DNA of 64,000 nt from assembly GCA_021414305.1 (NCBI GenBank), contig JAIOOS010000001.1, positions 10,694-74,693 on the forward strand, read 5' to 3'. Each line of letters begins with the position of its first letter. Position 1 is the first letter of the stretch. This document shows positions 2,040-64,000 of the stretch, piece by piece. The stretch comes from Burkholderiales bacterium. Lineage in GTDB: Bacteria; Pseudomonadota; Gammaproteobacteria; Burkholderiales; Burkholderiaceae_C. The notes below the pieces were generated by a model, which saw only the letters and a program-made list of their open reading frames with translations, ran no database searches and was not told the origin of the DNA. The position numbers and the translations under genes were made by a program.

Positions 2040-2046
2040 GGGCTGT

Positions 2047-3165: not shown

Positions 3166-3315
3166 TCTTGTCTCCCCCGGCGCTGTCCTGCCTCCCAGGC
3201 GAACCGCGACAGCAAACGATAGCGGCTTTCGAGCGCGGCGAACACCTTCGGCCAGCGCGGCGCCGGAACTATCCTCGCTCCGGTGTGGATCCGGGCTTGA
3301 ACGGAGGAGCGAAGC

Positions 3316-17172: not shown

Positions 17173-17775
17173 ATGGACCCGATCTCGAGTCGCCTGCTCG
17201 TTGCCGCACTGGCAGCGGGATTTCCGCTCCTCGCCGGCGCGCAGGCACTGCCCGACGATTGCAGCTCGGCCGCGGCGCCGAAGCAGCCGGTGGAAGCCTC
17301 GATCCTCGGCACGAAGTTCACGCCGAAGGCGGTGAACTTGCGCTCGACGGGCTATGTCAAGACCGAGAGCGAGCAATTCGATTCGTACCGTCTGGAGCTG
17401 ATGAGCGAAGACGGCATCTCGGCGCCGCTCGAGGTCGGCGTGACGTTCATCGTGCCCAAGGGCGCGAAGATCGAGGGCAAGGTGTTCCGGCGGCTCGCGA
17501 CCAAGGACCGCTCCAGGCAGCCGATGGCTTCGAAGGCGGGATCCGAGATCGAGGTCCAGGGCTGGTCGTTCAAGAACCGCCCGGCGAAGGCCGATTCGGA
17601 CCACACCGGTCATCTCGCGTCGCTGCGGCTCGAGTTCGGCCAGCGCAAGGGCGACACGATCCCCGGAAACATCTACCTGTGCGTGGCGCGAGGCCAGACG
17701 ACGATGTTCGACAAGACGCCGACGAAAGAGGAAAGCTACGCCGTCGGCGCATTCGTGGCGAAGATCGACAAGTAG
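17173..17775 (+). CDS. Hypothetical exported protein
   Basis: AAGGAAG RBS; signal peptide ending AQA; good codon usage; no family recognised. Confidence 0.7.
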   Translation: MDPISSRLLVAALAAGFPLLAGAQALPDDCSSAAAPKQPVEASILGTKFTPKAVNLRSTGYVKTESEQFDSYRLELMSEDGISAPLEVGVTFIVPKGAKIEGKVFRRLATKDRSRQPMASKAGSEIEVQGWSFKNRPAKADSDHTGHLASLRLEFGQRKGDTIPGNIYLCVARGQTTMFDKTPTKEESYAVGAFVAKIDK

Positions 17776-17854: not shown

Positions 17855-17872
17855 TGTCTCAACGGGTTTACA
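17855..17872. promoter_or_regulatory. PpsR/CrtJ site upstream of hip-bchIDO
   Basis: TGT-CTCAACGGGTTT-ACA = TGT-N12-ACA; an extra TGTCAA half-site at 17880. Confidence 0.75.
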
Positions 17873-17943: not shown

Positions 17944-18255
17944 ATGAACTCTCGCCGTCTCTTCATTCGCCTCACCGTCCTCGGGGGCGCCGCGCTCCTG
18001 GCCGCGCGCGAGGCCCTGGCCGATGCGCCGGTGCTCGACGAAAAGGATCCGCAGGCGGTGGCCCTCGGCTACGTGGCCGACGCGGCCCGGGTCAACAAGG
18101 CGAAGTACCCCGCCTACACGGCGGGGCAGGCGTGCTCGAACTGCCAGTTCTATCAGGGCAAGGCCGGCAGTCCGATGGCGCCGTGCCCGCTCTACGGCGG
18201 CAAGCAGGTCGCCGCCAAGGGCTGGTGCAGCGCCTACGCCAAGAAGGTCGGCTAG
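17944..18255 (+). CDS. hip: High-potential iron-sulfur protein (HiPIP) with Tat signal
   Basis: SRRLFI twin-arginine signal; A.ALGYV.DA; C..C (CSNC) ...CPLY...GWCSAY four-Cys pattern. Confidence 0.93.
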   Translation: MNSRRLFIRLTVLGGAALLAAREALADAPVLDEKDPQAVALGYVADAARVNKAKYPAYTAGQACSNCQFYQGKAGSPMAPCPLYGGKQVAAKGWCSAYAKKVG

Positions 18256-21208: not shown

Positions 21209-22090
21209 ATGCCGGCCGGGCTGGAGTGGGAACGCGACGGCGCGGCCTGGCCGAACCGCGAGGCGAGCCGCTTCGTCCCCGCCGGCGGCCTGCGCTGGCA
21301 CGTGCAGACGCGCGGCCAGGGACCGGCCGTCCTGCTGCTGCACGGCACCGGCGCCTCCTCCCATTCCTGGCGTGACCTGCTGCCGCTGCTCGGCGAGCGC
21401 TTCACCGTGATCGCGCCCGACCTGCCCGGACACGGCTTCACCTCGAAGGCCGTTGGCGACGGCATGTCGCTGCCCGGCATGGGCAGGCTCGTCGCCCAGC
21501 TGTTGAAGGTGCTCGGTGTCGAGCCGGAGTTCGTGGTCGGCCACTCCGCTGGCGCCGCGATCGCGGCCCGCATGAGCCTCGACGGTCGGCTCGCGCCGCG
21601 GGCCCTGGTCAGCCTCAACGGCGCCTTCCTGCCGTTCGCCGGCGCGCTGCGCGTGTTCTCGCCGGTGGCGAAGTTTCTCGCCTCGACTTCGCTTGCCGCT
21701 CGCCTCGCCGCGGTTCGGGCGCGCGATCCGCGGGCGGTCGGCCGCCTGCTGGCGTCGACCGGGTCGACGCTCGACGCGCGCGGCACCGCGCTCTACGCGC
21801 AGCTCGTGCAGAGCGCCGGTCACGTCGCCGGTGCCCTGGCGATGATGGCGAGCTGGGACCTCGACGGGCTGCCGCGCGAGCTCCGACGGCTCTCCGCGCT
21901 GGTGCTGCTGCTCGTGGGCGAGAACGACCTGACCGTGTCGCCGCAGCAGGCGTCGCGCGTGGCGGCGCTGCTGCCGCACGCCGAAGTCGAACGCCTGCCG
22001 GGCCTCGGCCACCTGGCGCACGAGGAACAGCCGCAGCTCGTGGCCGAGCGGATCTGCGCGTTCCTCGGCCGGGCCTCAGCCGCCGCCTGA
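21209..22090 (+). CDS. bchO: Alpha/beta hydrolase BchO
   Basis: WPNREASRFV, LLHGTGAS.HSW, DLPGHGF, GHSAG nucleophile elbow, GHLAHEE; follows bchD. Confidence 0.92.
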   Translation: MPAGLEWERDGAAWPNREASRFVPAGGLRWHVQTRGQGPAVLLLHGTGASSHSWRDLLPLLGERFTVIAPDLPGHGFTSKAVGDGMSLPGMGRLVAQLLKVLGVEPEFVVGHSAGAAIAARMSLDGRLAPRALVSLNGAFLPFAGALRVFSPVAKFLASTSLAARLAAVRARDPRAVGRLLASTGSTLDARGTALYAQLVQSAGHVAGALAMMASWDLDGLPRELRRLSALVLLLVGENDLTVSPQQASRVAALLPHAEVERLPGLGHLAHEEQPQLVAERICAFLGRASAAA

Positions 22091-23020
22091 AGCTTCGATC
22101 AAGGGCGCGTCGTGGGCGCGCAGGTAGGCCTCGCCGTTTTCGAGCATCGCGTAGCGGAACGCCTCGGCGGCGGGCGAGAGCACCTTGGAGAGCAGGTGCA
22201 CCAGGTTCCAGGTCTTGACGATCGGCGTGCCCTCGACCTCCAGGCGCGCGATCAGGCCGTTGCGCAATTCCAGACCCAGGGTGTGCAGCGAGAGGAAGCT
22301 CAGGCCCAGGCCCGCCATCACCGCCTGCTTGATCGTCTCGTTGCTCGACATCTCCATGGCGATGCGTGGCCGGAAGCCCTGCGCCTCGAAGAACTCTTCC
22401 ATCGCCTTGCGCGTGCCCGAGCCGGGCTCGCGGACGATGAAGGGCAGGTCGGCGAGGAGCGCCACGGGCAGCGATTCGCGGCCGAGCAGGCGATGGCCGA
22501 CCGGCGCGACAAAGACGAGAGGATGGGCGGCGAACGGCTCGCTGCGGGTCGCCATTTCCTTGGGTGGCCGGCCCATCACCGCCAGGTCGATCTCGCCTTC
22601 GTGCAGCAGCGCCAGCAGCTGCTCGCGGTTGCCGCTCACCTGCAGGCGAACCTCGACGCTCGGATGTTCTTCGCAGAACTGCGCCAGCAGGCGCGGCACG
22701 AAGTACTTGGCGGTGCTGACGAGGCCGACGTCGAGGCGGCCGCCCTCGACCCGGCGCAGGCGCGCCATCGCGTCCTCGGCGTCCTTCAGCGTCGCCAGCA
22801 GCCGCTTGGCATAGATCAGGAAGTACTCGCCGGTCGTCGTCAGCGAGATGGCCCGGCCGCGCCGGTCGAAGAGCGGCAGGCCGAGCGCGGATTCGAGCTC
22901 CTTGACCTGCATCGTCACCGCGGGAGGGGTCAGGTGCAGGGCCTCGGCCGCACGGACGAAGCTGAGCCGCCGGGCCACCTCCGAGAAGACCCGCAGTTGG
23001 CGGAACGTGACGTTCTTCAT
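22076..23020 (-). CDS. cbbR: LysR-family regulator of the cbb operon
   Basis: MKNVTFRQLRVF, SFVRAAEALHLTPPAVTMQVK, STAKYFVPRLL, REPGSGTR, SNETIKQAV; divergent from cbbL. Confidence 0.93.
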   Translation of the reverse strand: MKNVTFRQLRVFSEVARRLSFVRAAEALHLTPPAVTMQVKELESALGLPLFDRRGRAISLTTTGEYFLIYAKRLLATLKDAEDAMARLRRVEGGRLDVGLVSTAKYFVPRLLAQFCEEHPSVEVRLQVSGNREQLLALLHEGEIDLAVMGRPPKEMATRSEPFAAHPLVFVAPVGHRLLGRESLPVALLADLPFIVREPGSGTRKAMEEFFEAQGFRPRIAMEMSSNETIKQAVMAGLGLSFLSLHTLGLELRNGLIARLEVEGTPIVKTWNLVHLLSKVLSPAAEAFRYAMLENGEAYLRAHDAPLIEASGGG

Positions 23021-23033
23021 TAAGCGTTCCTGA
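23021..23033. promoter_or_regulatory. Putative CbbR (LysR) box in the cbbR-cbbL intergenic region
   Basis: TAA-GCGTTCC-TGA (TNA-N7-TNA, T-N11-A) immediately upstream of the cbbR start. Confidence 0.45.
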
Positions 23034-23055
23034 ATCGAAGCGCAAGCAAGTTTGA

Positions 23056-24606
<1,551 letters not shown>

Positions 24607-24619
24607 GGAGCCGCCGATC

Positions 24620-25057
24620 ATGATGACCAACACCGGGCAGCGCCTGACGCAGGGCCAGTTCTCCTTCCTGCCCGACCTGAGCGACGCGCAGATCGCGGCC
24701 CAGGTCGACTACGCCCTCGGCAAGGGCTGGGCGATCGGCATCGAGTACACCGACGACCCGCATCCGAGGAATACGTACTGGGAGATGTTCGGCAACCCGA
24801 TGTTCGACCTGCGCGACGCCGCGGCGATCGTGATGCACATCGGCGAATGCCGGAAGACCTTCCCCAACCACTACGTGCGCGTCACTGCCTTCGACGCGAC
24901 GCGCGGCTGGGAGACGCCGCGCATGTCGTATCTCGTCAACCGGCCGAAGCGCGAGCCGGGCTTCGGCCTGGCGCGCACCGAGATGGAGGGCCGCAACATC
25001 CGCTACCGCATTTCCTCGTACGCGACCGATCGTCCGGAAGGCGAGCGCTACGAGTGA
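24620..25057 (+). CDS. cbbS: RuBisCO small subunit, red-type
   Basis: [45 protein letters not shown] beta-hairpin extension. Confidence 0.97.
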
Positions 25058-25959
25058 GCGCGACCGCCGCCCCGCGCACCGTCGCCGAGGTCCTGGCCGA
25101 GAGCCAGGTCGAGGCCATCCTCGGCGAGCTCGACCGCGACCTGGTCGGCCTGGCGCCGGTGAAGGCGCGGATCCGCGACATCGCGGCGCTCCTCGTCATC
25201 GACAAGCTGCGCGCCGACCTCGGCCTTTCGGCCGAGAACCCGTCGCTGCACATGAGCTTCACCGGCAACCCGGGCACCGGCAAGACCTCGGTGGCGATGC
25301 GGATGGCGAAGATCCTGCATGGCCTCGGGTATGTGCGCAAAGGTCACCTGGTGGCGGTGACGCGCGACGACCTCGTCGGCCAGTACATCGGCCACACCGC
25401 ACCGAAGACGCGCGAGGTGCTCAAGCGCGCCATGGGCGGGGTGCTCTTCATCGACGAGGCCTACTACCTCTACCGGCCGGAGAACGAGCGCGACTACGGC
25501 CAGGAAGCGATCGAGATCCTGCTGCAGACGATGGAGAACCAGCGCGACGACCTGGTCGTGATCTTCGCCGGCTACGGCTCGCGGATGGAGACCTTCTTCA
25601 AGTCGAACGCGGGCCTCAGCTCGCGCATCGCCCACCACCTGGAGTTTCCCGACTACGACGAGCCCGAGCTGCTGCAGATCGCCGACCGCATGCTCGAGGA
25701 GCGCAGCTACCGCTTCGGTGCCGACGCGCGCGACGCCTTCGCCGAGTACCTGCACCGGCGCCTCGGCCAGCCGCACTTCGCCAACGCGCGCAGCGTGCGC
25801 AACGCGCTCGACCGGGCGCGGCTGCGCCAGGCGAGCCGGCTGTTCGCCGAGCGCGAGCGCGCGCTGACCCGGGAGGAGCTGACGACGATCGTGCCCGAGG
25901 ACATCCGCGCCAGCCGCCTGTTCGCCGCCCGTCCGGCGGAAGCGGAGGCCAACCCGTGA
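25054..25959 (+). CDS. cbbX: Red-type RuBisCO activase (AAA+)
   Basis: GTG start overlapping the cbbS stop; [51 protein letters not shown]. Confidence 0.96.
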
Positions 25960-26996
25960 CCATTCGCCTGGCGGAGTGGCTCGACGACCAGCCGGCCGCG
26001 CTCGGCGACGTGATCTCCGCGCTGGCGCTCGCCTGCCAGGAAATATCGACCGCGATCTCGCTCGGGCCGCTCGCGGGCCTGCACGGCAAGGGCGAGGGCC
26101 ACAACACGCACGGCGAGGCGCAGCACAAGCTCGATGTCTTCGCCGATCGCTGCATCGCCGGCACGCTGGCGGTCTCGCACCACGTGGCCGGCTGGGCGAG
26201 CGAGGAGCAGGAGCTGCCCACGCTCTCGCCGAGCCATGGCGAGCAGGGCGAGTACCTGGTGGTGTTCGACCCGCTCGACGGCTCCTCGAACATCGACGCC
26301 AACATCAGCGTCGGCACGATCTTCTCGGTGCTGAAGCATCCGTTTCGCGGCACGCCGCCGGGCGAGGCGGGGTTCCTGCAACCCGGGCGGCGCCAGGTGG
26401 CCGCGGGCTATGCGGTGTACGGGCCGGCCACCCTGCTGGTGCTTTCGTGCGGTGACGGCGTCGCCGCGTTCACGCTCGATCGGCGCGAGCGCGTCTGGCA
26501 GCTCACGAGCCCGGAGCTGCGCATTTCCGAGCAGACGCGCGAGTTCGCGATCAACGCCTCGAACCAGCGCTTCTGGGAAAAGCCGGTGCAGCGCTATGTC
26601 GCCGAATGCCTGGCCGGCACCGAGGGTCCGCGCGCAGCCGACTTCAACATGCGCTGGGTGGCCAGCCTGGTCGCCGAGGTGCACCGGATCTTCAGCCGCG
26701 GCGGTGTCTTCATGTACCCGCGCGACAACAAGGAGCCGAGGAAGGCCGGGCGGCTGCGCCTGATGTACGAGGCGGCGCCGATGGCCTTTCTGGTCGAGCA
26801 GGCGGGCGGCGCGGCCGTCACCGGCACCCAGGCCCTGCTCGACATCGTGCCCGACACGCTGCACCAGAAGGTGCCCGTGATCCTCGGCTCCAAGGGCGAG
26901 GTCGAGCGGATCGTCCGCTACCACGCCGACCCGCACGAGAACACGCACTGGCCGCTGTTCAAGGAGCGGTCGCTCTTCGTTCCGCCCGCCGGCTGA
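25956..26996 (+). CDS. cbbF: Fructose-1,6-bisphosphatase class 1
   Basis: [51 protein letters not shown]. Confidence 0.95.
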
Positions 26997-27019
26997 AGGC
27001 GCGCTCCGGAGAAAGCCGC

Positions 27020-27895
27020 ATGTCGAAGAAGCATCCCATCATCGCCGTCACCGGCTCGAGCGGGGCCGGCACGACGACGGTCAAGCGCGTGTTCGAGAAC
27101 ATCTTCCGCCGCGAAGGCATCTCCGCCGCGGTGATCGAGGGCGACGCGTTCCATCGCTATCCGCGCAAGGAGATGAAGGAGCTCATCGCCGCCGCCGACC
27201 GCGACGGCCGGCCGATGAGCCACTTCGGCCCGGAGGCGAACGAGTGGGGCGTGCTCGAGCAGCAGTTCCGCACCTACGGCGAGACCGGGCGCTGCGAGTC
27301 GCGCCTGTACCTGCACAGCGACGAGGAGGCGGCGCCGTGGAAGCAGCCGCCCGGCACCTTCACGCCCTGGCAGCAGACGCGGGCCGACACCGACCTGCTG
27401 TTCTACGAAGGCCTGCACGGCTGCGTGAAGACGGGCGATGTCGACCTGGTCCGCCACGTCGACCTGAAGCTCGGCGTGGTGCCGATCATCAACCTCGAAT
27501 GGATCCAGAAGATCCACCGCGACACCCGCGACCGCGGCTACTCCAAGGAAGGCGTGACCGACACCATCCTGCGCCGGATGCACGACTACGTGCACTACAT
27601 CTGCCCGCAGTTCGGCGAGACCGACATCAACTTCCAGCGCGTGCCGATCGTCGACACCTCCGATCCGTTCATCGCCCGCGACATTCCCACCGCGGGGGAG
27701 AGCGTCGTCGTCGTCCGCTTCCGCAACCCGCGCGGCATCGACTTCTCGTACCTGCTGGCGATGATCGACCAGTCGTACATGTCGCGCGCCAACACCATCG
27801 TCGTGCCCGGCGCGCGCATGGACCTGGCGATGCAGCTGATCCTCACCCCGCTGATCCTTCGCCTGATGGACATTCGCCGGGCGCAGCACCACTAG
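27020..27895 (+). CDS. cbbP: Phosphoribulokinase (proteobacterial type)
   Basis: MSKKHPIIAVTGSSGAGTT, EGDAFHRY, LLFYEGLHG, INLEWIQKIHRD, INFQRVP.VDTS. Confidence 0.97.
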   Translation: MSKKHPIIAVTGSSGAGTTTVKRVFENIFRREGISAAVIEGDAFHRYPRKEMKELIAAADRDGRPMSHFGPEANEWGVLEQQFRTYGETGRCESRLYLHSDEEAAPWKQPPGTFTPWQQTRADTDLLFYEGLHGCVKTGDVDLVRHVDLKLGVVPIINLEWIQKIHRDTRDRGYSKEGVTDTILRRMHDYVHYICPQFGETDINFQRVPIVDTSDPFIARDIPTAGESVVVVRFRNPRGIDFSYLLAMIDQSYMSRANTIVVPGARMDLAMQLILTPLILRLMDIRRAQHH

Positions 27896-27921: not shown

Positions 27922-27939
27922 TGTCAGAATGATCTGACA
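27922..27939. promoter_or_regulatory. PpsR/CrtJ site upstream of crtI
   Basis: TGTCAG-AATGAT-CTGACA, a TGT-N12-ACA site with perfect 6-bp arms. Confidence 0.85.
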
Positions 27940-42340: not shown

Positions 42341-43321
42341 ATGGCGCTCGAGTACCAGAATCTGTTCACGACGGTGCAGGCCGTCTCCCCCGCCTATGCC
42401 GGCGTGCCGCTCGGGCGCGACCAGGCCGAGCGGACCCGCGGCACCGGCCACGTGCACCTGCTCGGCCGGATCGGCGACGCGCAGCTCGGGCCGATCTACC
42501 TCGGCTTCTTCGGCGTCGCCTCGCTGCTCTGCGGCTTCATCTGCATCGAGATCATCGGTCTCAACATGCTGGCCTCGGTGAACTGGGACCCGGTGCAGTT
42601 CATCCGCCAGCTCCCCTGGCTGGCGCTGGAGCCGCCGCCGGCCAAGTACGGCCTGTCGATACCGCCGCTCAACGAGGGCGGCTGGTGGCGCATCGCCGGC
42701 TTCTTCCTCACCTGCTCGGTGCTGTTCTGGTGGGTGCGCATGTACCGCAGGGCGCGGGCGCTCGGCATGGGCACGCACGTCGCCTGGGCCTTCGCCGCGG
42801 CGATCTGGCTGATGCTCGTGCTCGGCTTCATCCGGCCGCTGCTGATGGGCAACTTCGCCGAGGCCGTGCCGTTCGGGATCTTCCCGCACCTCGACTGGAC
42901 CGCCGCGTTCTCGATCCGCTACGGCAACCTCTTCTACAACCCTTTCCACATGCTCTCGATCGCGTTCCTCTACGGCGCGACGCTGCTGTTCGCGATGCAC
43001 GGCGCGACCATCCTCGCGGTCAGCCGGTTCGGCGGCGAGCGCGAGATCGAGCAGATCGTCGATCGCGGCACCGCCTCCGAGCGGGCGGCCCTCTTCTGGC
43101 GCTGGACCATGGGCTTCAACGCGACCATGGAATCGATCCACCGCTGGGCCTGGTGGTTCGCCGTGCTCTGCCCGCTGTGCGGCGGCATCGGCATCCTGCT
43201 CACCGGCACGGTGGTCGACAACTGGTATCTGTGGGCGGTGAAGCACCACATCGCGCCGATGTACCCCTCGGTCTTTCCGGCGGTCGTCGATCCTTCGCTG
43301 CTCCAGGGAGCCAAGCCATGA
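42341..43321 (+). CDS. pufM: Reaction centre M subunit
   Basis: [61 protein letters not shown]. Confidence 0.98.
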
Positions 43322-44364
43322 GCAATCGCATCAACGGGCTCGCGATCGTCGCCGCGGTCGCGGGCGCGGCGCTGCTCTCGGCCTGCGAGCCGCCGCCGGT
43401 GAACAGCGTGCAGCGCGGCTATCGCGGCACCGGCATGGTCGAGGTCTACCGTCCGGCCGCGGTGGCCGCGGCGGCCACCCTCAACGCGCCGCCGGCGCCC
43501 TCGGCCGCGGCCTCGCCCGACGGCCCGCGCGCCTCGCAGGTGTTCAAGAACGTGAAGGTGCTCGGCGACCTGAGCGCCGGCGAGTTCGCCCAGATCATGG
43601 TCGACATGACCGCCTGGGTGGCGCCGCAGCAGGGCTGCACCTACTGCCACGCCGCGACCGACTTCGCCGACGACTCGCTCTACACCAAGGTCGTCTCGCG
43701 GCGCATGCTGCAGATGACGCAGCACATCAACGCCGACTGGAAGACGCACGTCGCCGAGACCGGAGTCACCTGCTACACCTGCCATCGCGGCAACAACGTG
43801 CCGGCCAACGTATGGTTCCGCTCCGCCGAGGCGGCGAAGATGCCGGGCATGCTCGGCAACAAGGCCGGGCAGAACGCGCCGGCGGTGCAGGTGGGCCTGA
43901 CCTCGCTACCGAACGATCCGTTCTCCAGCTTCATTGGCGCGAACGAGGAGATCCGCGTCGTCGCGCCCGCTGCCTTGCCGACCAAGGGCGACCACCCGTC
44001 GATGATCAAGCAGACCGAGGCGACCTACGGCCTGATGATGCACATGTCGAAATCGCTCGGCGTCAACTGCACCTACTGCCACAACACGCGCTCGTTCGCG
44101 TCGTGGGACTCGAGCACGCCGCAGCGGGCGACCGCGTACTACGGCATCCGCATGACCCGCGACCTGAACAGCGCCTACCTCGCCCCGCTCGCCGGCGTGT
44201 TTCCGGCGAACCGGCTGGGACCCACCGGCGACGTGCCGAAGCTCAACTGCGCCACTTGCCACCAGGGCGCGTACAAGCCGCTCTACGGCGCCGACATCCT
44301 CAAGGGCCATCCCGGCCTGACGGGCGGCGTGAAGGTTGCGGCAGCCGCCAGCGCGCCGGGCTGA
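43318..44364 (+). CDS. pufC: RC-bound tetraheme cytochrome c subunit (lipoprotein)
   Basis: Lipobox LLSAC; QRGYRGTGM; four CxxCH motifs (CTYCH, CYTCH, CTYCH, CATCH). Confidence 0.97.
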
Positions 44365-44429
44365 GAGCGGAGAGCGGAGCCCCGGCCGAGTCCTTATGAT
44401 CGGCCGATGCAAGTTCCACGGCGGCAAGC

Positions 44430-45077
44430 GTGAGTTCGCGCCTTGCCGAACGCCTTCGGGCCGAGACGCGGGAGCTGCATACGCTCGCCGAGCGCAGCCC
44501 CTTCATGTCGACGCTCCTGCGCGGCCGGATGGACCGCAGCGCCTACGTCGCGCTGCTGCGCAACCTGCAGGCGATCTACGCGGCGCTCGAGCCGGCGTTG
44601 CGTAGGCATGCCGCGCACCCGGCCCTCGCGGCGTTGCACGATCCGGCCCTGGCCCGCAGCGAATCGCTGCGCGACGACCTCGCTGTCGTCGACTCCGGCG
44701 CGCGCGCCGATGACCCGGTCCAGCCGGCGACGCTTCGTTATGTGGAGCGATTGCGCGAGCTCGATGCCGAACGTCCCGAGTTGCTGCTCGCGCATGCCTA
44801 CGTTCGCTACCTCGGCGACCTGAGCGGGGGGCAGTTGCTGAGCGGCATCGTCGCCCGCAGCCTGGGCCTTCCGTCGGGCCGCGGTGTTGCCTTCTACGAT
44901 TTCGGCGACGCCGACGCCACGGCAGCGCTCGCCGGAACGTTTCGCCACGGCCTGGCCACCGCGGTGATCGACGACGAGGACGCGGTCGTCGCCGAGGCCC
45001 GGCTCGCCTTCGAATGGCACCGCCGCTTGTTCGAGGAGCTCGCCGCGGCCCACGGGCTCGCGACCGACGCGGCCTAG
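44430..45077 (+). CDS. bphO: Biliverdin-producing heme oxygenase (BphO/HemO type)
   Basis: LRAETRELH..AE (proximal His), AHAYVRYLGDLSGGQ, FYDF, EARLAF; convergent with the phytochrome gene. Confidence 0.92.
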   Translation: MSSRLAERLRAETRELHTLAERSPFMSTLLRGRMDRSAYVALLRNLQAIYAALEPALRRHAAHPALAALHDPALARSESLRDDLAVVDSGARADDPVQPATLRYVERLRELDAERPELLLAHAYVRYLGDLSGGQLLSGIVARSLGLPSGRGVAFYDFGDADATAALAGTFRHGLATAVIDDEDAVVAEARLAFEWHRRLFEELAAAHGLATDAA

Positions 45078-45095
45078 GCGGCAGCCGCCCGCGGC

Positions 45096-47300
45096 TCAGC
45101 CGCCGAAGCTGCGGATTCGCGCGTAGAGCATGGTCGCGCGCCGGGTCGAGGCCTCGACCTCTTCGAGCAGCGGCGCCACCGAAGGCTCGCTGCTGCCGTC
45201 GGCGATATCCATCGCAGCCAGGCTGGCGTTGGCGAGGATCGCCGCCATCAGGTCGCCATGCGCGCCCGGGCCGCCGCCGCGTGTCTCGGGGCGTACCTCG
45301 TCGTCGCCCGCCTGCGTCAGCGACTGCTCGAGGTGACGGCGTGCCTCGGCGACCCGGTGGCTGTCGGTCAGGTCGACGAGGATGACGAAGAAGCCGAGCA
45401 CCGAGCCGTCGCGCGCCGCGACCAGCTCGGTGCGCACCGCCACCGGCAAGGTGCCGCCGGCCACGAGATGCAGGGCCATCTCGCCGCGCCAGGATCGGCG
45501 GTCGTCGGCGACGGCGCGCAGAACGCGGCGCATCTGCTCGGGCGCCTCGAACAGGTCCGCCAGCTCGCCCTTGGCGAGCATGTCCAGGGTGCTCGTCCTT
45601 CCGCCGGCGATGCCGGTGCGCCGCAGCGCCGCGAAAGCGTCGTTGGCGAACAGCGTGTGGCCCTGCACGTCGGCGATGACGACCGGCTCCTTCGAGCTGC
45701 CGATCAGGGCGCGGATGTGGCTGAGCTGATGCTCGGCGATGAGGAGCCGCACCGCGTTGATCTGGACGATGATGTCGATCAGCGAATTGCCGAAGGCCCG
45801 GCCGAGGGCGATCTCGCTCCCGGTCCAGGGCAGCGCGGTGCCGCGCACGATCTCCGACCAGGCGGCGAACGAGCGCCGCGGGGAGAGCTCGAGCGGATCG
45901 TTGCCGACCACCGGCTTGGAAGGGTCGCCGGCCCAGGTCACGGTCAGGAGTTGTTCCTTGCGGAACCAGAGCAGGTAGTCGGGCCGCGAGGCCGAGAGCT
46001 TGACCGCGAGCACGCCGCTCGCCGTCGGGGTGAGCGAATCGAGCGCCGGGTTGGCGCGCGACACCGAGTTGCAGCTGAACAGGCCATCGACGCCCTGCGG
46101 CTCGATCCATTGCAGAAGCGCGCGCAGCTCGGCCGTGGAGGGCACCTCGCCCGCGGTGAGAAGCTCGCCGTCGTGGAACAGGGCCGCGCCGGTGGCCTCG
46201 AGCGGCTGCAGCAGGTTGCGCGGATTGCGGAACAGCGCGAGCCGCCAGTCGCCCTCGGTCGAGGTCGCCTCGACCAGCCGCTGCTCGAGGCGACGCACCT
46301 GGATCGCGCCCTGGGCATGCGCGTAGTTCTCGATCGCCGCGATGCGCGTGGAGACCACCTCGGCCAGGAGGTCGGCCGCGGAACGGACCGAGAAGCGGAG
46401 GTTGCGCGCCGAGTAGTGGTGGCAGGCGATGAGGCCCCACAGGCGCCCTTCGCGGACCAGCGAGACCACGAGGGTCGCCGTCACGCCCATGTTCTTCAGG
46501 TACTGCAGGTGCAGCGGCGACATGCTGCGCAGGTAGCACATCGACATGTCGAGCTCGTCGGCGCTGCCGGGAACGAGCCGCGGCTGCAGCAGCGCCGGCT
46601 GGTAGTGGACGTCGACGAGCACGCGCAGGCGGTTGCGCAGGTAGAGCTCGCGCGCCCGCTGCGGGATGTCGGAGGCCGGGTAGTGGTGACCGAGCAGCGA
46701 CTCGAGGCGGGGATCGCGCGCCTCGGCGATGATCTTGCCGTGACCGTCGGGGTCGAACTTGTAGACCATGACCCGGTCGTAGCCGAGCATGTCGCGGAAG
46801 GTGCGGACCACGGCATCGGCGAGCTGGCCGATCGACGTGGCGGCGCTGAAGCGCTGGACCGCGTCGCTGAGCGCCTCGGTCAGCGCCGCCGGGCCGATGC
46901 TCACGGTCTCGACGGCGGCCCCGGCCGGAGCGATCGGCTCGATCTCGGCGAGCAGCAGGTCGGCACGCACGCGATGCACCGTTCCCTCGAACTCGCGCAA
47001 TTCGCCGCCAACGCGCAGGCTGCAATGCAGGGGCGCCGGCTCGGCCAGGTCGGGCGACAGGGCGAGGGTGCGCAGGCGCGCGTCGATGTCGCCGCCCAGC
47101 TCGACCAGCGGTTGCCGGAGCAGGCTCTCCACCGCCAGGCCGAGCAGCGCGGGGGCATTGGCGCTGACCTGGACGATGCGCAGCGCCGGTTCCTGGATTG
47201 CCAGCAGCAGCCCGTGCGGTTGCACCGAGCCGGCCAGATGGATCAGCTCACGTTCGCAATTGCTGAGATCGGCCTGGCCGAACGGCGGGCTGCTGAGCAC
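45096..47300 (-). CDS. bphP: Bacteriophytochrome, BphP1 type (PAS-GAF-PHY-PAS-HOS, no histidine kinase)
   Basis: N-terminal Cys (CERELIHLAGSVQPHG), YPASDIP, MSPLHLQYLKNMGV, LWGLIACHH, PRRSF tongue; C-terminal PAS and helical HOS-like tail. Confidence 0.93.
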   Translation of the reverse strand: MLSSPPFGQADLSNCERELIHLAGSVQPHGLLLAIQEPALRIVQVSANAPALLGLAVESLLRQPLVELGGDIDARLRTLALSPDLAEPAPLHCSLRVGGELREFEGTVHRVRADLLLAEIEPIAPAGAAVETVSIGPAALTEALSDAVQRFSAATSIGQLADAVVRTFRDMLGYDRVMVYKFDPDGHGKIIAEARDPRLESLLGHHYPASDIPQRARELYLRNRLRVLVDVHYQPALLQPRLVPGSADELDMSMCYLRSMSPLHLQYLKNMGVTATLVVSLVREGRLWGLIACHHYSARNLRFSVRSAADLLAEVVSTRIAAIENYAHAQGAIQVRRLEQRLVEATSTEGDWRLALFRNPRNLLQPLEATGAALFHDGELLTAGEVPSTAELRALLQWIEPQGVDGLFSCNSVSRANPALDSLTPTASGVLAVKLSASRPDYLLWFRKEQLLTVTWAGDPSKPVVGNDPLELSPRRSFAAWSEIVRGTALPWTGSEIALGRAFGNSLIDIIVQINAVRLLIAEHQLSHIRALIGSSKEPVVIADVQGHTLFANDAFAALRRTGIAGGRTSTLDMLAKGELADLFEAPEQMRRVLRAVADDRRSWRGEMALHLVAGGTLPVAVRTELVAARDGSVLGFFVILVDLTDSHRVAEARRHLEQSLTQAGDDEVRPETRGGGPGAHGDLMAAILANASLAAMDIADGSSEPSVAPLLEEVEASTRRATMLYARIRSFGG

Positions 47301-48754
47301 TACGGTTCACCCTGATCGGCACCGGCTGAAGACTGTCGAAGGTCGGACGAATCGGAGCCTGCGACCTGAACGATGCGCTCGCGGCCGACGCCGAGCAGCA
47401 GCGCGGCGGCCTCGGCATTGCCGCTGCTTCGCGTCAGCGCGAGCCGGATGAAGTGGTGCTCCGCCAGGACGCCGGTGTCATGGAGCAGGGTGGCCAGGGG
47501 CAGCTCGCCGAGGCGCCCGGCCAGCAGCTCGAGGCCTTCGCGCAGCGACTGCGGCAGCGGCTCGGGCGCAGGGGTCGCGACCCTGGCCCTGTGGATCGTG
47601 AAGCCGATGCACTCCTGGTCGCCCTCGGTGAGGAGGGTGGCCGAAATGTCGATGCTCTCGGCGGCGCCCTGCGCCGGCCGGACCGTCGCCGGGAAGTGCC
47701 GCACGACCCCGTGCCGACGTACCTGCGAGAGCAGCTCCTCCAGCGGCCGCTCGGCGCTGCCCAGCCACTCGACCAGCGGCCGGCTGCGCGCCTGGTCCTC
47801 GTTGCGCAGTTGCAGCAGGGCCAGCAACGCCGGGTTGGCGAACTGGATCCGGCCGCTCGAGTCGGTCACCACGACGGCGTCCTGCCCCGTTTCTGACGAC
47901 CCGGCGGACATCGCGCCGGCAGCGTCGAGCGAAGCGGTGGCGGCTGTCTCCGAGCGGACGCGTACCAGCAGGCGCATCGCGTCGTTGGCGCGAAACGAGG
48001 TCGCGGCGACGCTGGCGGTGACGACGCTGCCGAGCAGCCGGGCGCGGATCTCGCCGCTCTGGCCGCTGCTGCGCGCGGTGGTCAGCAGCTCGTTGACCGC
48101 GCCGCGCGAGGGATGGCCGAAGCCGACGGCCACGTGCTTTCCGACCAGCTGCTCGCCGGCGCTGGCGAAGAGGCGCACCGCCGAAGGGTTGATGTCGAGG
48201 ATCAGGAACGACTCCGGGTCGACGATCAGCACCGCGTCGGTCGCCACTTGGGCCAGCAGGCGATGGCGCGACTCCGCCTGGCGCGCGTTCCAGTAGCCGC
48301 GCTCCATGTCGCGCTGCGTCTCGATGAAGCGTTCCTGGATCGCGGCGATCGCCCGCATGTCGCGGCCGACCGCGAGCACCGGCCCATGTTCGCCGAGGCG
48401 GATCGCCGTGTAGGCGATGGGCACGGTCGCGCCCGACTGCAGGGGATGGTTGACCTCGCGCCGCCGGGCGATGCCCTGGCTGGAAGCCTCCTTGAGCAGC
48501 TTTTCGATCTTGCCGCGGGTGTCGCCGCTGACGGTGTCGACCCAGGGCTGGCCGACCCACGACGAGGCGGCCGGCGCGATCGGATCGGTCTCGCCCTGCT
48601 CGACGTTGCGGATCACGCCGGCATCGTCGATCACCAGGGCGATGTCGCTGGACAGCGCCACGAAGGTCCGGGCCAGCTCGGGCGCCCATGCGGACAGCTT
48701 GCCGAGGTCGAGCGGATCGCTCGCGGAGGGGCTCACGTCCTCAGTCTTTCGCAC
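47300..48754 (-). CDS. ppsR: PpsR2-like PAS-PAS-PAS regulator with a degenerate C-terminal HTH
   Basis: DIALVID..GVI, RRREVNH, AVGRDMRAIA.IQERF...Q..MERGYW Q-linker, PAS repeats; stop overlaps the bphP start (TAGTG). Confidence 0.88.
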   Translation of the reverse strand: MRKTEDVSPSASDPLDLGKLSAWAPELARTFVALSSDIALVIDDAGVIRNVEQGETDPIAPAASSWVGQPWVDTVSGDTRGKIEKLLKEASSQGIARRREVNHPLQSGATVPIAYTAIRLGEHGPVLAVGRDMRAIAAIQERFIETQRDMERGYWNARQAESRHRLLAQVATDAVLIVDPESFLILDINPSAVRLFASAGEQLVGKHVAVGFGHPSRGAVNELLTTARSSGQSGEIRARLLGSVVTASVAATSFRANDAMRLLVRVRSETAATASLDAAGAMSAGSSETGQDAVVVTDSSGRIQFANPALLALLQLRNEDQARSRPLVEWLGSAERPLEELLSQVRRHGVVRHFPATVRPAQGAAESIDISATLLTEGDQECIGFTIHRARVATPAPEPLPQSLREGLELLAGRLGELPLATLLHDTGVLAEHHFIRLALTRSSGNAEAAALLLGVGRERIVQVAGSDSSDLRQSSAGADQGEP

Positions 48755-48847
48755 ACGGGTGCCATGTAAAGCATATCCCTCGCGGCCGCGAGGGAGGGGC
48801 GGCCGGGCGGTCGATTCTAAGTGGCCGCGTCGCGGCCCGGCCGACGA

Positions 48848-49642
48848 CTAGGAAGGGCCGGTGCCCAATCGTTCACCCGCGGCCGGGGCGCGCGAGCGCA
48901 GGCCCCAGTTCCAGATCGCCGTCGAGGGCAGCGGCAGCACCATGAACCAGTGCTCCAGGATCGCCAGCGACAGCAGCGTGGCGGCGAAGGTGAGGGCGGT
49001 GGTTTCGTAGGCGCCGATGCCGCTGGCCAGCGCCGCCTGCCACACCAGCACCGCGAGCCAGGTCGAGGCGGCGACCACCACCGGGAACAGCGAATTCATG
49101 CGGGCGCGGCGGAAGTAGCTCTGCAGGTAGCCCAGGTGCGCGGGCAGGAACTCCTCGCTCAGGTTGCGCACGCCGAGGAAGATGTTGAGCTTGGCGCTCT
49201 GTCGCATCACCCACAGGATGGCGAAGGTCCACAGGCCGGTGCGGTTCGGCTGTCCCCAGGTCGCCGCGATCACGCCGGCGCCCAGCACCAGCAGCGCCAG
49301 CTCGTGGTGCGCCACCGTCTGGAAGGCGAGCGCCGCCCGGTGCCAGCCGCGCGCCCCCGGCGGGCAGGCGATGCGGCGCGGTCCGGTGACCATGCCTAGC
49401 AGGAAGGCGACTTCCTGCCAGGCCCAGATGAGGAGCGCGCAGGCGAACGCGCAGTAGGCGGCGGCCGGCGTCTCGATGGCGCTGCTCGCATGCAGGCCGA
49501 CGAAGCCGAGCATCGCCAGCACGGTGGCGCCGAGCATCGTCCACTTGAACGTGCGGGGCGGCTTGCCGTCGAGATACAGGATCACGCCGGTGCTGAACCA
49601 CCAAAGGAACAGCGTGAACAGCAGCGGTGCCGCGTAGATCAT
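48848..49642 (-). CDS. puhE: Photosynthetic complex assembly protein PuhE
   Basis: LFLWWFSTGVIL, HHELAL, WVMRQSAKLNIFLGVRN, ILEHWFMVLPL. Confidence 0.93.
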   Translation of the reverse strand: MIYAAPLLFTLFLWWFSTGVILYLDGKPPRTFKWTMLGATVLAMLGFVGLHASSAIETPAAAYCAFACALLIWAWQEVAFLLGMVTGPRRIACPPGARGWHRAALAFQTVAHHELALLVLGAGVIAATWGQPNRTGLWTFAILWVMRQSAKLNIFLGVRNLSEEFLPAHLGYLQSYFRRARMNSLFPVVVAASTWLAVLVWQAALASGIGAYETTALTFAATLLSLAILEHWFMVLPLPSTAIWNWGLRSRAPAAGERLGTGPS

Positions 49643-49644
49643 CG

Positions 49645-50706
49645 CTACCAGGCCGGCCGCATCCGCACGGCCTGCGGCAGGTCGTGGCGCCGCACCGGCA
49701 GCAAGTACAGGCGGGCGAAGGTGGCGACACCGGCGACCGCGCCGGCCGCCTGGCGCAGGCGCCCGAGCAGGCCGCCGCGGGCCTTCGCCGCGGCCATCGC
49801 CTGCGAGATCTCGAACAGCCGCTCGAGGCCGCGGCGGAAGGCCGGATGGTCGACGTCGAGCGTCACCGGGAACACCTGCTTCGAGATCTCCGAGGTGATG
49901 CGGAACACCGTGTAGTCGTATTCGTCGGGATCGAGACCCATTGCCATGTGCAGCTTCGGCCGCGTGTGGTCGCGGACGTACATCGTGGCGTAGACCGCGA
50001 GCAGGAAGAAGCGGATCCAGAGCATGTTGCCGCCGCGCAGCAGGTCCGGGTTGGCGCGCATGATCAGGGCGAACGATTCGCCATGCCGGAATTCGTCGTT
50101 GCACCAGCGCTCGAACCAGCGAAAGATCGGATGGAAGCGCTTCTCGGGGTGGCGCTCGAGCTGGCGAAAGATCGTGATGTAGCGCGCGTAGCCGATCTTC
50201 TCGGACAGGTAGGTCGCGTAGAAGATGTACTTGGGCTTGAAGTAGGTGTAGGCCTTGGTGCGCTTGAGGTTGCCGAGGTCGACGCCGAGGTCGAAGTCCT
50301 TCAGCGACTGGTTGATGAAGCCGGCGTGGCGCGACTCGTCGCGCGCCATGTAGCGCATGAGCTGCTTGATGTCGGGGTTGCTGACGTTCTTCTGGATCTC
50401 GTTGTAGAGCACGCAGCCGGAGAATTCGGAGGTGATCGAGCTGATCAGGAAGTCGAGGAACTCCTGGCGGATCTCGTCGGGCAGGGCCTTCACCTCCTCG
50501 GCGAACTCGGGCGTGCGCTGGAAGTGGTCGTGGTTGTTGTCGCCTTCGTACTCCTGCATCATCAGGTTCCACTCGGCCCTCACCGAGGAGACGTCGAGCC
50601 GGTCCATCGCGGCGTAGTCGGTGCTGTAGAACTTGGGGCTCAGCAGCGTGTTCGAGAGCGCCTTCTCGTGAACGTCGTCGCGCGACGCGATGATGCGGGA
50701 GGTCAT
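49645..50706 (-). CDS. acsF: Aerobic Mg-protoporphyrin IX monomethyl ester cyclase
   Basis: [10 protein letters not shown], diiron motifs [30 protein letters not shown]. Confidence 0.97.
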
Positions 50707-54832: not shown

Positions 54833-59578
<4,746 letters not shown>

Positions 59579-59607
<29 letters not shown>

Positions 59608-61201
59608 AGAGGGTCTCGACCGTGATCGTCGGCATGCCGCGCTCGCTGGCGTAGCGCTCGGTGTTGCGCCGGGCCCGGCCGCGAACGAAGAAGGGAATCT
59701 TGTGCAGCTCGCGCTCGGCGTCGGGCGCCCAGCCGACCGCGATCGCCGAGCCCTCACCCTGGCCCTCTCCCGCCGGGCGGGAGAGGGAGGAATGCACTTC
59801 GGGCTCCCTCTCCCGCTCGCGGGAGAGGGCGGGGGGTGAGGGTGCAGCACTCGTGCCCGAGCCCAGATGCGAAGGCGCCGCATCGGCATGGAACTCGAAG
59901 TCGCCGCGGAACATGCCGATCAGGTGCTCCTCGAGACCCATCATCAGCGGGTGCACGAAGGCGTCGAACAGGCCGTTGGCGCCCTCGAAGCCCATCTGCG
60001 GCGAGTAGCGCGCAGGGAAGTCCTGCACGTGAACCGGGCCGGAGATCACCGCGCAGGGAACGCGCAGCCGCTTGGCGATGTGCCGCTCCATCTGCGAGCC
60101 GAGCACCAGGTCGGGCTGCAGCGCCTCGACCTGCGCTTCGACCTCGAGGTAGTCGTCGCTGATCAGGGGCTCGACGCCGTACTTCTTCGCCGCCTCGCGG
60201 ACCTCGCGTGCGAACTCGCGGGCGTAGGTGCCGATGCCGCAGACCGTGAAGCCGAGCTCCTCGGCGGCGACGCGCGCCGCGGCGACGGCGTGGGTCGCGT
60301 CGCCGAAGACGAAGACGCGCTTGCCTTCCAGGTAGGTCGAGTCGACCGAGCGCGCGTACCAGGTCGCGCGCGCTTCGTTGGCCGCGAGGACGGGCGCGGG
60401 GTCGATGCCGGCCAGCGCCGCGACCTCGGCGATGAACTCGCGCGTCGCGCCGGTGCCGATCGGGATGGTCTTCGTCGCCGGCTGGCCGAAGCTGCGGGTC
60501 AGCCACTGCGCGGCGATCGACGCGACTTCCGGGTAGAGCACGACGTTGAAGTCCGCGTCGCCCAGCCGGGCGATGTCTTCCGGGCCGGCGCCGAGCGGCG
60601 CGACGACGTTGATCGCCACGCCGAGCTGGCCGAGCAGGGCGCTGATCTCCTTCAGGTCGTCGCGGTGGCGAAAGCCGAGCGCGCACGGGCCGAGGATGTT
60701 GCAGCTCGGCTTGACCGCGGGGTCCCTGGCCGGCCGAACCCAGCCCGGCGCAGGCGCCTTCGGACCGGCGAGCGTGCGCACGACCTGATAGAAGGTCTCG
60801 GCGGCGCCCCAGTTCTCCTTGCGCTGATACGAGGGCAGCTCGAGCGCCACGACCGGAATGGGCAGGTCGAGCGCCTTCGCCAGGCCGCCCGGATCGTCCT
60901 GGATCAGCTCGGCGGTGCAGGATGCGCCGACCAGCATCGCCTTCGGCGCGAAGCGCTGGTAGGCGTCGCGGGCCGCGTTCTTGAACAGCTCGGCCGTGTC
61001 GCTGCCGAGGTCGCGCGCCTGGAAGGTGGTGTAGGTGACGGGCGGGCGGCGCGGCAGCCGCTCGATCATCGTGAACAGCAGGTCGGCGTAGGTGTCGCCC
61101 TGCGGCGCGTGCAGCACGTAGTGCACGTCCTTCATCGCCGTGGCGATGCGCATCGCGCCGACGTGCGGCGGGCCTTCGTAGGTCCAGAGCGTGAGTTGCA
61201 T
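59579..61201 (-). CDS. bchB: DPOR subunit B
   Basis: [52 protein letters not shown]-terminal [15 protein letters not shown]. Confidence 0.97.
59751..59842. repeat. 92-bp cruciform palindromic element (copy B) inside the bchB linker
   Basis: CCCTCACCCTGGCCCTCTCCC ... GGGAGAGGGAG ... CTCCCTCTCCC ... GGGAGAGGGCGGGGGGTGAGGG; same architecture as copy A. Confidence 0.85.
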
Positions 61202-61205
61202 CGGC

Positions 61206-63091
<1,886 letters not shown>

Positions 63092-63302
63092 CTACAGTCC
63101 GCGAAAAGCAGAACGAAATGGACGCTTGTCAAAGCGATGGGTGCACCGATTGACGCTGCCGGCACACGGCAGTAGAAGCTTGGATATCGCGACCCGAAGG
63201 GCAGGAACAGCCCGGTCTCGCGATCGGTTCGTCGCCGTCTGCGGCATGGGCGGCGGCGAACCCTCAACGGCTGCACGACGAAGGCATTCGCGAGGAGACG
63301 AC

Positions 63303-64000
63303 ATGGAGAGCTTGCCGCAGGAATACCCGACAGGCGAAGGCGTTCCGAGGGCTCCCGGTCGACCTGAGTGCGAGGAGCTCCTGCCCGCGCTCGCCGTGGC
63401 CGAGGCGGCCAACGACATGCGAATGGCCCAGCTCGTGCGGGCGATCGAGCAGGAGATCATTCCGCGGCTCATGCTCGCGCACCGGGCCAGCGCCGATGCG
63501 CCCGTGCGCACGGCCGACAAGGGTCGCTCGCTCGGCCCCGACGAGGTCCGGCACTTCGCCAAGCTGGTTCTCTCGGCGGACGAAGACGCGGCGTTTTCCG
63601 CCGTGCTGGCCTATCGCGCCGACGACGTATCGATCGAATCGATCTACCTCGACCTGCTCGCGCCGACCGCCCGCTATCTCGGCGATCTGTGGACCGAGGA
63701 CCTCTGCAACTTCACCGACGTGACGGTCGGGCTGGGCCGGCTCCAGCGCGTCCTGCGCGAGCTCAGTCCGGCGTTCGGCCTGGCGAGCGACGACTCGGCC
63801 GAGAACCTCAGCGTCCTGCTCCTGCCCAGTCCCGGCGAGCAGCACACCTTCGGCCTGGTCATGGTCGGCGAGTTCTTCCGTCGCGCAGGCTGGGAAGTGA
63901 GTGGCGGCGCCTGGACCACCGGCGCCGACGCGTCGACGCTGGTCGCCGGCGAGTGGTTCGACGCGGTCGGCTTTTCCCTCGGCGCCGAGATCCACCTGGA
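63303..64000 (+). CDS. aerR: Cobalamin-binding photoregulator AerR/PpaA (truncated by window end; absent from the ORF track)
   Basis: GAGGAG RBS, ATG at 63303; hand translation gives IEQEIIPRLMLAH, IYLDLLAPTARYLGDLW..D.CNF.DVTVGLGRLQ, PGEQHTFG, FFRRAGW; divergent from bchF. Confidence 0.9.
   Translation, partial: MESLPQEYPTGEGVPRAPGRPECEELLPALAVAEAANDMRMAQLVRAIEQEIIPRLMLAHRASADAPVRTADKGRSLGPDEVRHFAKLVLSADEDAAFSAVLAYRADDVSIESIYLDLLAPTARYLGDLWTEDLCNFTDVTVGLGRLQRVLRELSPAFGLASDDSAENLSVLLLPSPGEQHTFGLVMVGEFFRRAGWEVSGGAWTTGADASTLVAGEWFDAVGFSLGAEIHL

Follow-up and report, generated by a model that had tools for sequence, protein, structure and literature searches.

Far-red control of photosystem synthesis by BphP1 and PpsR2 is a textbook system, and the parent of the near-infrared (NIR) optogenetic pairs BphP1-PpsR2 and BphP1-QPAS1. 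To our knowledge, the pair has so far been studied only in Rhodopseudomonas palustris and Bradyrhizobium. Here we analyze a module of three genes, encoding a heme oxygenase (HO), a phytochrome (bphP) and a PpsR paralog (ppsR2), in 64,000 nucleotides of contig JAIOOS010000001.1 from the Burkholderiales bacterium assembly GCA_021414305.1, a stretch hereafter termed the window. The window originates from a freshwater metagenome, has a G+C content of ~70% and holds most of a photosynthesis gene cluster (PGC). An independent contig of the source metagenome, with a depth of 53x, spans positions 43300-49700 with zero differences. We assign a probability of about 0.5 to the reading that the module is a BphP1-type photoswitch, that its PpsR paralog relays the signal indirectly via a canonical PpsR1, and that ppsR2-bphP and HO have promoters of their own.

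The closest described system is RpBphP1/RpPpsR2/HmuO of R. palustris (structure 4GW9). The two loci share the gene triad and its orientation (ppsR2 directly adjoins bphP1, and HO converges on the pair), a PAS2-GAF-PHY-PAS9-HOS phytochrome without a kinase, and a second, canonical PpsR1 together with AerR in the cluster. They differ in that RpPpsR2 has a full HTH_8 helix-turn-helix (HTH) match of 47.4 bits with LSRQSLYAKLNRYG, while the window paralog has not. Furthermore, the R. palustris unit is located between cycA and aerR-bchF with a TGT-N12-ACA box upstream, whereas the window unit is located between puhE and pufC and has no box. BrBphP1/PpsR2 of photosynthetic Bradyrhizobium has the same triad and the same two-PpsR logic, but BrPpsR2 has a full HTH_8 (49.9 bits) and three PpsR boxes upstream. 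In a 2025 review of aerobic anoxygenic phototrophs, a phytochrome combined with two PpsRs is treated as a trait of Bradyrhizobium (PMC12654162).

AppA-PpsR, AerR-CrtJ and LdaP-PpsR are known cases in which a photoreceptor serves as antirepressor through protein contact with PpsR (PMC3949515, PMC12654162). The window module would resemble these systems in that a PpsR-family protein is bound at or near the Q-linker without phosphorylation, and aerR is also found in the window genome. In AppA (R. sphaeroides), AerR and LdaP, however, flavin or B12 sensors act directly on a DNA-binding PpsR, whereas the window has a bilin sensor and a paralog that looks DNA-blind. Relative to them we infer an extra layer, leading from the sensor via a PpsR-like adaptor to PpsR1.

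The phytochrome and the heme oxygenase

The module consists of the following elements, where AF2 denotes an AlphaFold2 model:

44430-45077, plus strand: heme oxygenase gene (HO), 215 aa, GTG start
45078-45095: HO/bphP spacer between the convergent stops, 18 bp, GCGGCAGCCGCCCGCGGC
45096-47300, minus strand: bphP, 734 aa
45099-45368, minus strand: HOS-like output tail of the phytochrome (aa 645-734), a helix and a two-helix hairpin, from alignment and AF2
47298-47302, minus strand: TAGTG stop/start overlap of ppsR2 and bphP, read from the sequence, translational coupling
47300-48754, minus strand: ppsR paralog ("PpsR2"), 484 aa

The three open reading frames (ORFs) were recovered at the coordinates given in the initial annotation, and so were the TAGTG coupling and the 18-bp convergent gap described there. 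The minus-strand junction reads ...GGT GAA CCG TAG TGC TCA..., so that the G of the ppsR stop codon TAG doubles as the initial G of the bphP start codon GTG. The 18 bp lie between the stops of HO (45077) and bphP (45096). An alternative gene call found elsewhere starts the paralog at GTG 48736, giving 478 aa. A database protein of 575 aa (P0047) was found to combine PpsR PAS domains with a phytochrome PAS_2; either ppsR2 and bphP are naturally fused there by read-through at their overlap, or the gene call contains a frameshift.

The domains of the phytochrome are PAS2 (aa 15-122), GAF (159-321), PHY (336-513) and PAS9 (528-649), followed by the HOS tail. No Pfam match to HisKA or HATPase was found in the protein, and the C-terminal PAS at 528-649 was matched by PAS, PAS_4 and PAS_9. 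The best relative in the PDB is RpBphP1 (4GW9) with 573 bits, compared to 364 bits for the next unrelated phytochrome, and the 4GW9 alignment extends through the C-terminal PAS to residue 647. Cys15 and the motifs DIP (DIP211), PRxSF (PRRSF474) and W(A/G)G (WAGDP456) are all present, and invariant or near-invariant in an alignment of 83 sequences that includes the two alphaproteobacterial references.

Alignment of the HOS tail with RpBphP1 and BrBphP1 extends to the C-terminus, with 34% identity over the helices, and the pattern NAxLAA..I..G....A.LLE.V.S..R is common to the window phytochrome and RpBphP1. C-terminal to the PAS domain, the AF2 model, of modest overall confidence (mean predicted local distance difference test score, pLDDT, of 66), has helices at 645-667, 680-702 and 708-733, with a pLDDT of 58-78 in this region. 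This agrees with the description of HOS as helices hJ'/hJ/hK (PMC6899989). Across the Burkholderiales clade the HOS helices have a mean pairwise identity of 0.67. Pfam, the HOS alignment and the predicted helices are thus in line with the earlier description of a phytochrome that has no kinase and ends in a PAS domain and a helical HOS-like tail. The likeness to RpBphP1/BrBphP1 that had been proposed extends to the domains and to the ppsR2, bphP1, HO unit of R. palustris and Bradyrhizobium. Judged by every feature that can be read from sequence, the window phytochrome is a kinase-less BphP1-type protein with a PAS9-HOS output. The type is further marked by a Pfr dark state (bathy behavior) and by far-red-induced binding of PpsR2, traits for which we are aware of no dependable sequence signature.

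The HO matched Pfam PF01126 (Heme_oxygenase) with 178 bits (2e-52) over profile positions 2-204 of 204. It is full-length, with the proximal His at His17 in ...ETRELHTLAE, and is 39% identical to the HO adjoining bphP1 in R. palustris and Bradyrhizobium. We classify it as a bphO/hmuO-type HO that would supply biliverdin. HO is convergent with bphP within 400 bp in 52 of 75 related loci.

The PpsR paralog and its degenerate HTH

In the paralog the PpsR body of N-PAS, Q-linker, PAS1 and PAS2, which serves oligomerization and partner binding, is present and is followed by a degenerate HTH. The protein matched NCBIfam TIGR02040 (PpsR-CrtJ) with 294 bits against a cutoff of 275, over profile positions 3-431 of 442; other PpsRs scored 473-520 bits. 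Residues 18-381 align to R. sphaeroides PpsR (4HH2) across three PAS domains. In the AF2 model of the paralog (mean pLDDT 89.6) three PAS folds are seen, along with a long helix spanning 133-172. The C-terminal element is located as follows:

47342-47479, minus strand: degenerate Fis-type HTH (aa 426-471), ...GNAEAAALLLGV-GRERIVQVAGSDS; HTH_8 below threshold

The C-terminus of the paralog reads ...GNAEAAALLLGV-GRERIVQVAGSDSSDLRQ... and reached only 15.5 bits with Pfam HTH_8, for which the gathering threshold is 22. The match covers only profile positions 6-32 of 42 and stops where the recognition helix should begin. Full-profile matches were obtained for the PpsR1 of the same genome (42.6 bits), RpPpsR2 (47.4 bits) and BrPpsR2 (49.9 bits). 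The conserved PpsR recognition helix LSRQSLY(V/A)KL(R/N)R(Y/F)G, by which all PpsR1s and the alphaproteobacterial PpsR2 read TGT-N12-ACA, was not found in the paralog, which reads GRERIVQVAGSDS; SRQSLYVKLRR of the canonical helix corresponds to GRERIVQVAGS, with a net charge of about 0. A PpsR-HTH profile was built from PpsR1s and the two alphaproteobacterial PpsR2s; being made mostly of PpsR1 sequences it is biased towards PpsR1, and it scored 77-98 bits for PpsR1s and alphaproteobacterial PpsR2s but at most 28 bits in all 73 bphP-linked Burkholderiales paralogs, with 15.4 bits for that of the window.

The mean pairwise identity within the two clades was found to differ between the regions of the protein:

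N-PAS: paralog clade 0.63, PpsR1 clade 0.54
Q-linker: paralog clade 0.72, PpsR1 clade 0.73
PAS1: paralog clade 0.55, PpsR1 clade 0.50
HTH helices 1-2: paralog clade 0.49, PpsR1 clade 0.88
Recognition helix: paralog clade 0.22, PpsR1 clade 0.87

Conservation of the paralog is lowest in the recognition-helix stretch. In an alignment of 86 homologs 60 columns are invariant and many more are near-invariant, with a mean column identity of 56%. A450, A451, L454 and G455 of HTH helices 1-2 are near-invariant, and no near-invariant column was found after G455 in the same alignment.

Eight Rhizobacter-type loci lack ~20 residues over HTH helices 1-2, with the gene otherwise intact and coupled to bphP. 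Two causes of the odd tail were discarded. It does not result from a frameshift, as no other frame encodes a canonical helix, nor from an assembly error, as the same tail is present in a metagenome-assembled genome (MAG) 96% related to the window (L001), from another sample, and the 53x contig is identical.

Within the 64-kb window no second ppsR was found by tblastn. The adjacent regulatory gene is:

63090-64000, plus strand: aerR/ppaA, Pfam B12-binding; runs off the window and diverges from bchF

A further contig (L081) matches window positions 55317-64000 at 100% and continues via aerR into a 477-aa PpsR and then bchG (ppsR1/bchG region at 1880-4326 of that contig). Since aerR runs off the window and ppsR1 lies beyond it, the second regulator pair of the cluster is cut by the window edge. 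This PpsR1 scored 520 bits with TIGR02040, has the full HTH_8 match mentioned above and ends in ...LGLSRQSLYVKLRRFNIGD. The name PpsR2 used in the initial annotation is therefore justified, a canonical PpsR1 being encoded next to aerR just past the right end of the window. The paralog is 37% identical to this PpsR1 overall; the Q-linker, at 50%, is the best-conserved region between the two. In PpsR the Q-linker is the interface for oligomerization and AppA binding (PMC3949515).

The window contains 8 TGT-N12-ACA sites compared to 2.8 expected. They are located 5' of crtI, crtD, HiPIP-bchI and orf200, among other places. The sites at HiPIP-bchI and at the unassigned 200-aa ORF (17173-17775) are at 17855 and, 5' of the ORF, at 17057; those at crtI and crtD are at 27922 and 33270, respectively. 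No TGT-N12-ACA site was found next to the module, even when one mismatch was allowed. The upstream regions of alphaproteobacterial ppsR2 genes carry 1-3 such boxes each.

These data bear on how the light signal would reach promoters. In the mechanism we propose, the HO would produce biliverdin, which the kinase-less phytochrome would bind at Cys15. Photoconversion by red/far-red light would then reposition the PAS9-HOS output and thereby alter how the phytochrome binds the PpsR paralog, whose coding region lies just upstream on the same message. Up to this point the proposal is extrapolated from R. palustris and Bradyrhizobium, to which homology is strong and with which synteny is shared. The paralog would be a light-titratable partner of the canonical PpsR1, whose gene lies ~15 kb away next to aerR, and would contact this PpsR1 for example by forming mixed oligomers or by competition, without itself sitting on operators. 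As the paralog lacks the DNA-reading helix of its family, the signal would most likely reach promoters via PpsR1, and as the Q-linker is both the PpsR interface and the best-conserved region between the paralogs, mixed oligomers or competition are plausible.

The initial annotation named the partner PpsR2. It departs from typical PpsR2 repressors in a Fis-type HTH that is below the Pfam threshold and has no conserved recognition helix; with its DNA-reading helix decayed, the partner may not act as a classical repressor. In the classical mechanism the paralog would be a DNA-binding repressor with a divergent but working HTH, and far-red-activated phytochrome would pull it off promoters. The gene triad and its coupling are as in R. 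palustris and Bradyrhizobium, TIGR02040 is above its cutoff, AF2 retains three C-terminal helices, helices 1-2 are partly conserved in the four near-invariant residues, and an HTH-like ITPESLxLRLQRHGL helix is kept in some members of the clade. Set against this are the failed HTH_8 and recognition-helix matches, the replacement of the contact residues by an uncharged stretch that is the most variable of the protein, the deletion of part of the HTH in sister lineages, and the lack of PpsR boxes near the module. We consider the classical mechanism the main rival to our reading, if somewhat improbable. Should the helix bind DNA despite its divergence, we would be dealing with one more member of a known family.

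Several further observations weigh against an indirect relay, in addition to the bias of the HTH profile. The AF2 model has a third helix at 458-470 with a pLDDT of 83-96, so an HTH-like fold may persist and bind DNA with another specificity, and Arg459 and Arg461 are retained in this helix. It may be that the HTH fold survives in the paralog while the DNA-contacting side chains do not. A model based on small-angle X-ray scattering (SAXS) pairs the HOS of RpBphP1 with the HTH of RpPpsR2 (PMC6899989). If that pairing is right, the C-terminus of the paralog may be evolving for this contact rather than decaying. The titration of PpsR1, finally, is something we infer from the sequences only.

Could the paralog instead be a functionless duplicate on its way to loss, with the phytochrome signaling through something else? 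Its C-terminal region evolves fast and its TIGR02040 score is barely above the cutoff. However, the 60 invariant columns and 56% mean column identity over the 86 homologs, the intact reading frame in about 70 species with the stop/start overlap with bphP kept, the confident AF2 fold and a G+C content at third codon positions (GC3) of 0.91, typical of expressed genes here, make such a decay very improbable.

The indirect relay can be taken one step further. The Burkholderiales paralog would then be a light-gated adaptor and no longer a DNA-binding repressor, bound or released by the phytochrome and engaging PpsR1 or its partners. We put this forward tentatively and regard it, in this strong form, as unlikely. 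If true, it would amount to a three-tier relay from bilin sensor to PpsR-like decoy to PpsR1; we know of no photosynthesis gene cluster for which such a relay has been described. A decayed DNA-reading helix next to a conserved phytochrome-facing body predicts relay of the signal by protein-protein contact, and suggests that the natural Burkholderiales paralogs are already "QPAS-like" binding modules.

Candidate promoters and the leader palindrome

The module is flanked by pufC and puhE, and the following elements were identified around its two transcription units:

43321-44364, plus strand: pufC, left neighbor of the module, NF040706 with 470 bits
44395-44400, plus strand: TATGAT, candidate -10 for HO, 30 nt 5' of the GTG start
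48776-48795, minus strand: perfect 20-bp palindrome (8+4+8) in the ppsR2 leader, TCCCTCGCGGCCGCGAGGGA
48814-48819, minus strand: TAGAAT, candidate -10 for ppsR2-bphP, 65 nt 5' of GTG 48754 and 29 nt past the puhE stop
48848-49642, minus strand: puhE, right neighbor of the module, TIGR03055 with 290 bits, frame and coordinates corrected

With puhE at 48848-49642 the spacer between puhE and the ppsR paralog is 93 bp; the distance from pufC to HO is 65 bp. The location of the module between pufC and puhE, as described initially, holds with this corrected position of puhE. The ORF at 48873-49730 on the minus strand was rejected as puhE; it has no family match, is rich in Arg, Pro and Gly, and is an out-of-frame artefact. 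This ORF, which overlaps puhE, nevertheless gave tblastn matches of 45-89% in related loci. It is a case of conserved DNA in high-GC genomes giving rise to conserved wrong-frame "proteins."

The -10-like hexamers are consensus matches that were found by comparing loci. TAGAAT is present ~20-80 bp 5' of ppsR2 in 38 of 75 loci, compared to 0.0034 expected per 200 bp, and is also found in loci without puhE upstream. For HO, TAT[G/C]AT was found within 100 bp 5' of the gene in 28 of 56 loci, with a mode at -35, where the expectation is 0.0026 per 100 bp. The HO hexamer is missing where PpsR1 directly precedes HO, and the two genes abut there.

The initial annotation had HO transcribed with puf and the sensor with puh. 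This is not borne out by the related loci, in which puhE is upstream in only 28 of 70 (counted with the corrected puhE) and pufC downstream in 13 of 54, and conserved -10-like hexamers are located 5' of both units. Based on this comparison, ppsR2-bphP and HO each probably have their own promoter, and there may be read-through from puf and puh into the module. Against this part of our reading stands that the hexamers are consensus matches. A sigma-70 promoter scan found nothing. The sole RNA run from the same sample was without coverage, so the promoter role of the hexamers is deduced from the locus comparison.

The palindrome in the ppsR2 leader is the only terminator-like match in 43800-49900, where 1.5 were expected from shuffled sequences. 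The locus that is 96% related to the window retains it by a compensatory C>A/G>T pair (TCCATCGCGGCCGCGATGGA); among the related loci compared it was not conserved beyond this one. The palindrome may act as a hairpin in the RNA or as an operator for a protein. The 18-bp HO-bphP spacer contains no terminator-like site, and fold z-scores of -1.8 and -0.2 were not significant. Terminators between pufC and HO, HO and bphP, and puhE and ppsR2 were likewise discarded, since the hairpin in the ppsR2 leader was the only one and the folds were not significant.

Distribution, origin and cluster context

Relatives of the phytochrome were searched for in one genome per species from 185,579 species. This gave 333 relatives, and locus statistics were compiled for the best 80, which show 61-96% identity and are nearly all labeled Burkholderiales. 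Among these 80 are the genera Caldimonas, Rhizobacter, Methylibium, Variovorax, Ideonella, Ramlibacter, Rubrivivax, Piscinibacter and Aquabacterium, and cultured strains are included. The closest relatives are Burkholderiales MAGs and isolates, in agreement with the betaproteobacterial host context suggested initially. In 71 of the 74 loci that extend far enough, a ppsR paralog is located directly 5' of bphP. Overlap of the two genes, or a distance of at most 4 nt, was found in 49 of 77 loci, by TAGTG in 19 and TGATG in 11. The exact layout of the window was found in 8 related species.

A compact arrangement, in which ppsR2 and bphP are convergent with HO and ppsR1 and HO abuts the end of ppsR1, was found in nine loci. 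One of them is the Ramlibacter MAG LF-Bin-46 (L025 of this set, ppsR2-bphP-HO-ppsR1), for which an "atypical BphP" has been remarked on in passing (PMC11847603). The remark makes no link to BphP1/PpsR2, photosynthesis clusters or the HTH. It was the only mention of the Burkholderiales module found in a literature search that covered subscription journals thinly, so an earlier mention is possible. The clade-wide decay of the HTH of the partner appears to be undescribed. In three further loci with window synteny (L051, L058 and L066) the phytochrome is 62-65% identical, and the MAGs are labeled Chitinophaga pinensis, Candidatus Intricatilinea gracilis and Gammaproteobacteria, respectively; these odd labels are likely binning or labeling errors.

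For comparison the RpBphP1 sequence was rebuilt from the PDB alignment and used to retrieve the R. palustris and Bradyrhizobium loci. In both, ppsR1-bchG-pucC-bchP-tspO-...-cycA (cycA on the minus strand) is followed by ppsR2 and bphP1 in the forward direction, HO and aerR in the reverse direction and then bchF, forward. As ppsR2 and bphP1 converge with HO in the same order as in the window, the three-gene unit is identical and its position in the cluster alone differs. The window and R. palustris share 43.5% identity in the phytochrome, 39% in HO and 29% in the paralog, compared to 51% in PpsR1, 40% in AerR, 74% in BchN and 70% in BchB. With Bradyrhizobium the phytochrome shares 42.5% and the paralog 30%.

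The initial annotation described the module as an alphaproteobacterial-type switch in an apparently betaproteobacterial cluster, which implies an oddity. A rival reading is a recent import from an alphaproteobacterium, with insertion between pufC and puhE; it was in alphaproteobacteria that the first members were characterized and that the unit is found at another position, between cycA and aerR-bchF. However, the phytochrome, HO and paralog are less similar to their alphaproteobacterial counterparts than are PpsR1 and BchN of the same cluster, which points to an old, diverged lineage of the module. The phytochrome belongs to the large Burkholderiales clade at 61-96% identity, being only 43-44% identical to alphaproteobacterial BphP1; the G+C content and GC3 of the module are the same as those of its flanks; and eight related species share the exact layout. 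A recent import is hence highly unlikely, and the sequence comparison indicates that the module is widespread, old and ordinary in Burkholderiales.

The paralog itself is 29-30% identical to RpPpsR2 and BrPpsR2, compared to 33-37% to PpsR1s. In a midpoint-rooted neighbor-joining tree the Burkholderiales paralogs form their own clade, apart from alphaproteobacterial PpsR2. The shared synteny argues for a common origin of the paralog and alphaproteobacterial PpsR2. A deeply diverged version of the pair is present in dozens of species of Burkholderiales, among them cultured strains such as Rhizobacter sp. Root404, Variovorax sp. KK3, Piscinibacter defluvii SH-1 and Ideonella sp. A288. This broadens both the known ecology of the system and the choice of candidates for orthogonal optogenetic pairs.

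The gene order of the window begins with hemN and non-PGC genes, HiPIP-bchIDO, cbbR and a cbbLS-cbbX-fbp-prk operon. This is followed by crtIB, crtD (minus strand), a crtF-like gene, bchCXYZ, pufBALMC and HO. After HO the minus strand carries bphP, the ppsR paralog, puhE, acsF, puhCBA, lhaA and bchMLHBNF, and aerR follows on the plus strand. The run from bchF through N, B, H, L, M, lhaA, puhA, B and C to acsF, named earlier, was borne out by family matches. The HiPIP gene (17944-18255, Pfam HIPIP) is located directly 5' of bchI. Between bchO and crtI (22076-27895) the PGC contains a complete Calvin-cycle unit, with a divergent cbbR, form I RuBisCO cbbL/cbbS, cbbX, fructose-bisphosphatase and phosphoribulokinase.

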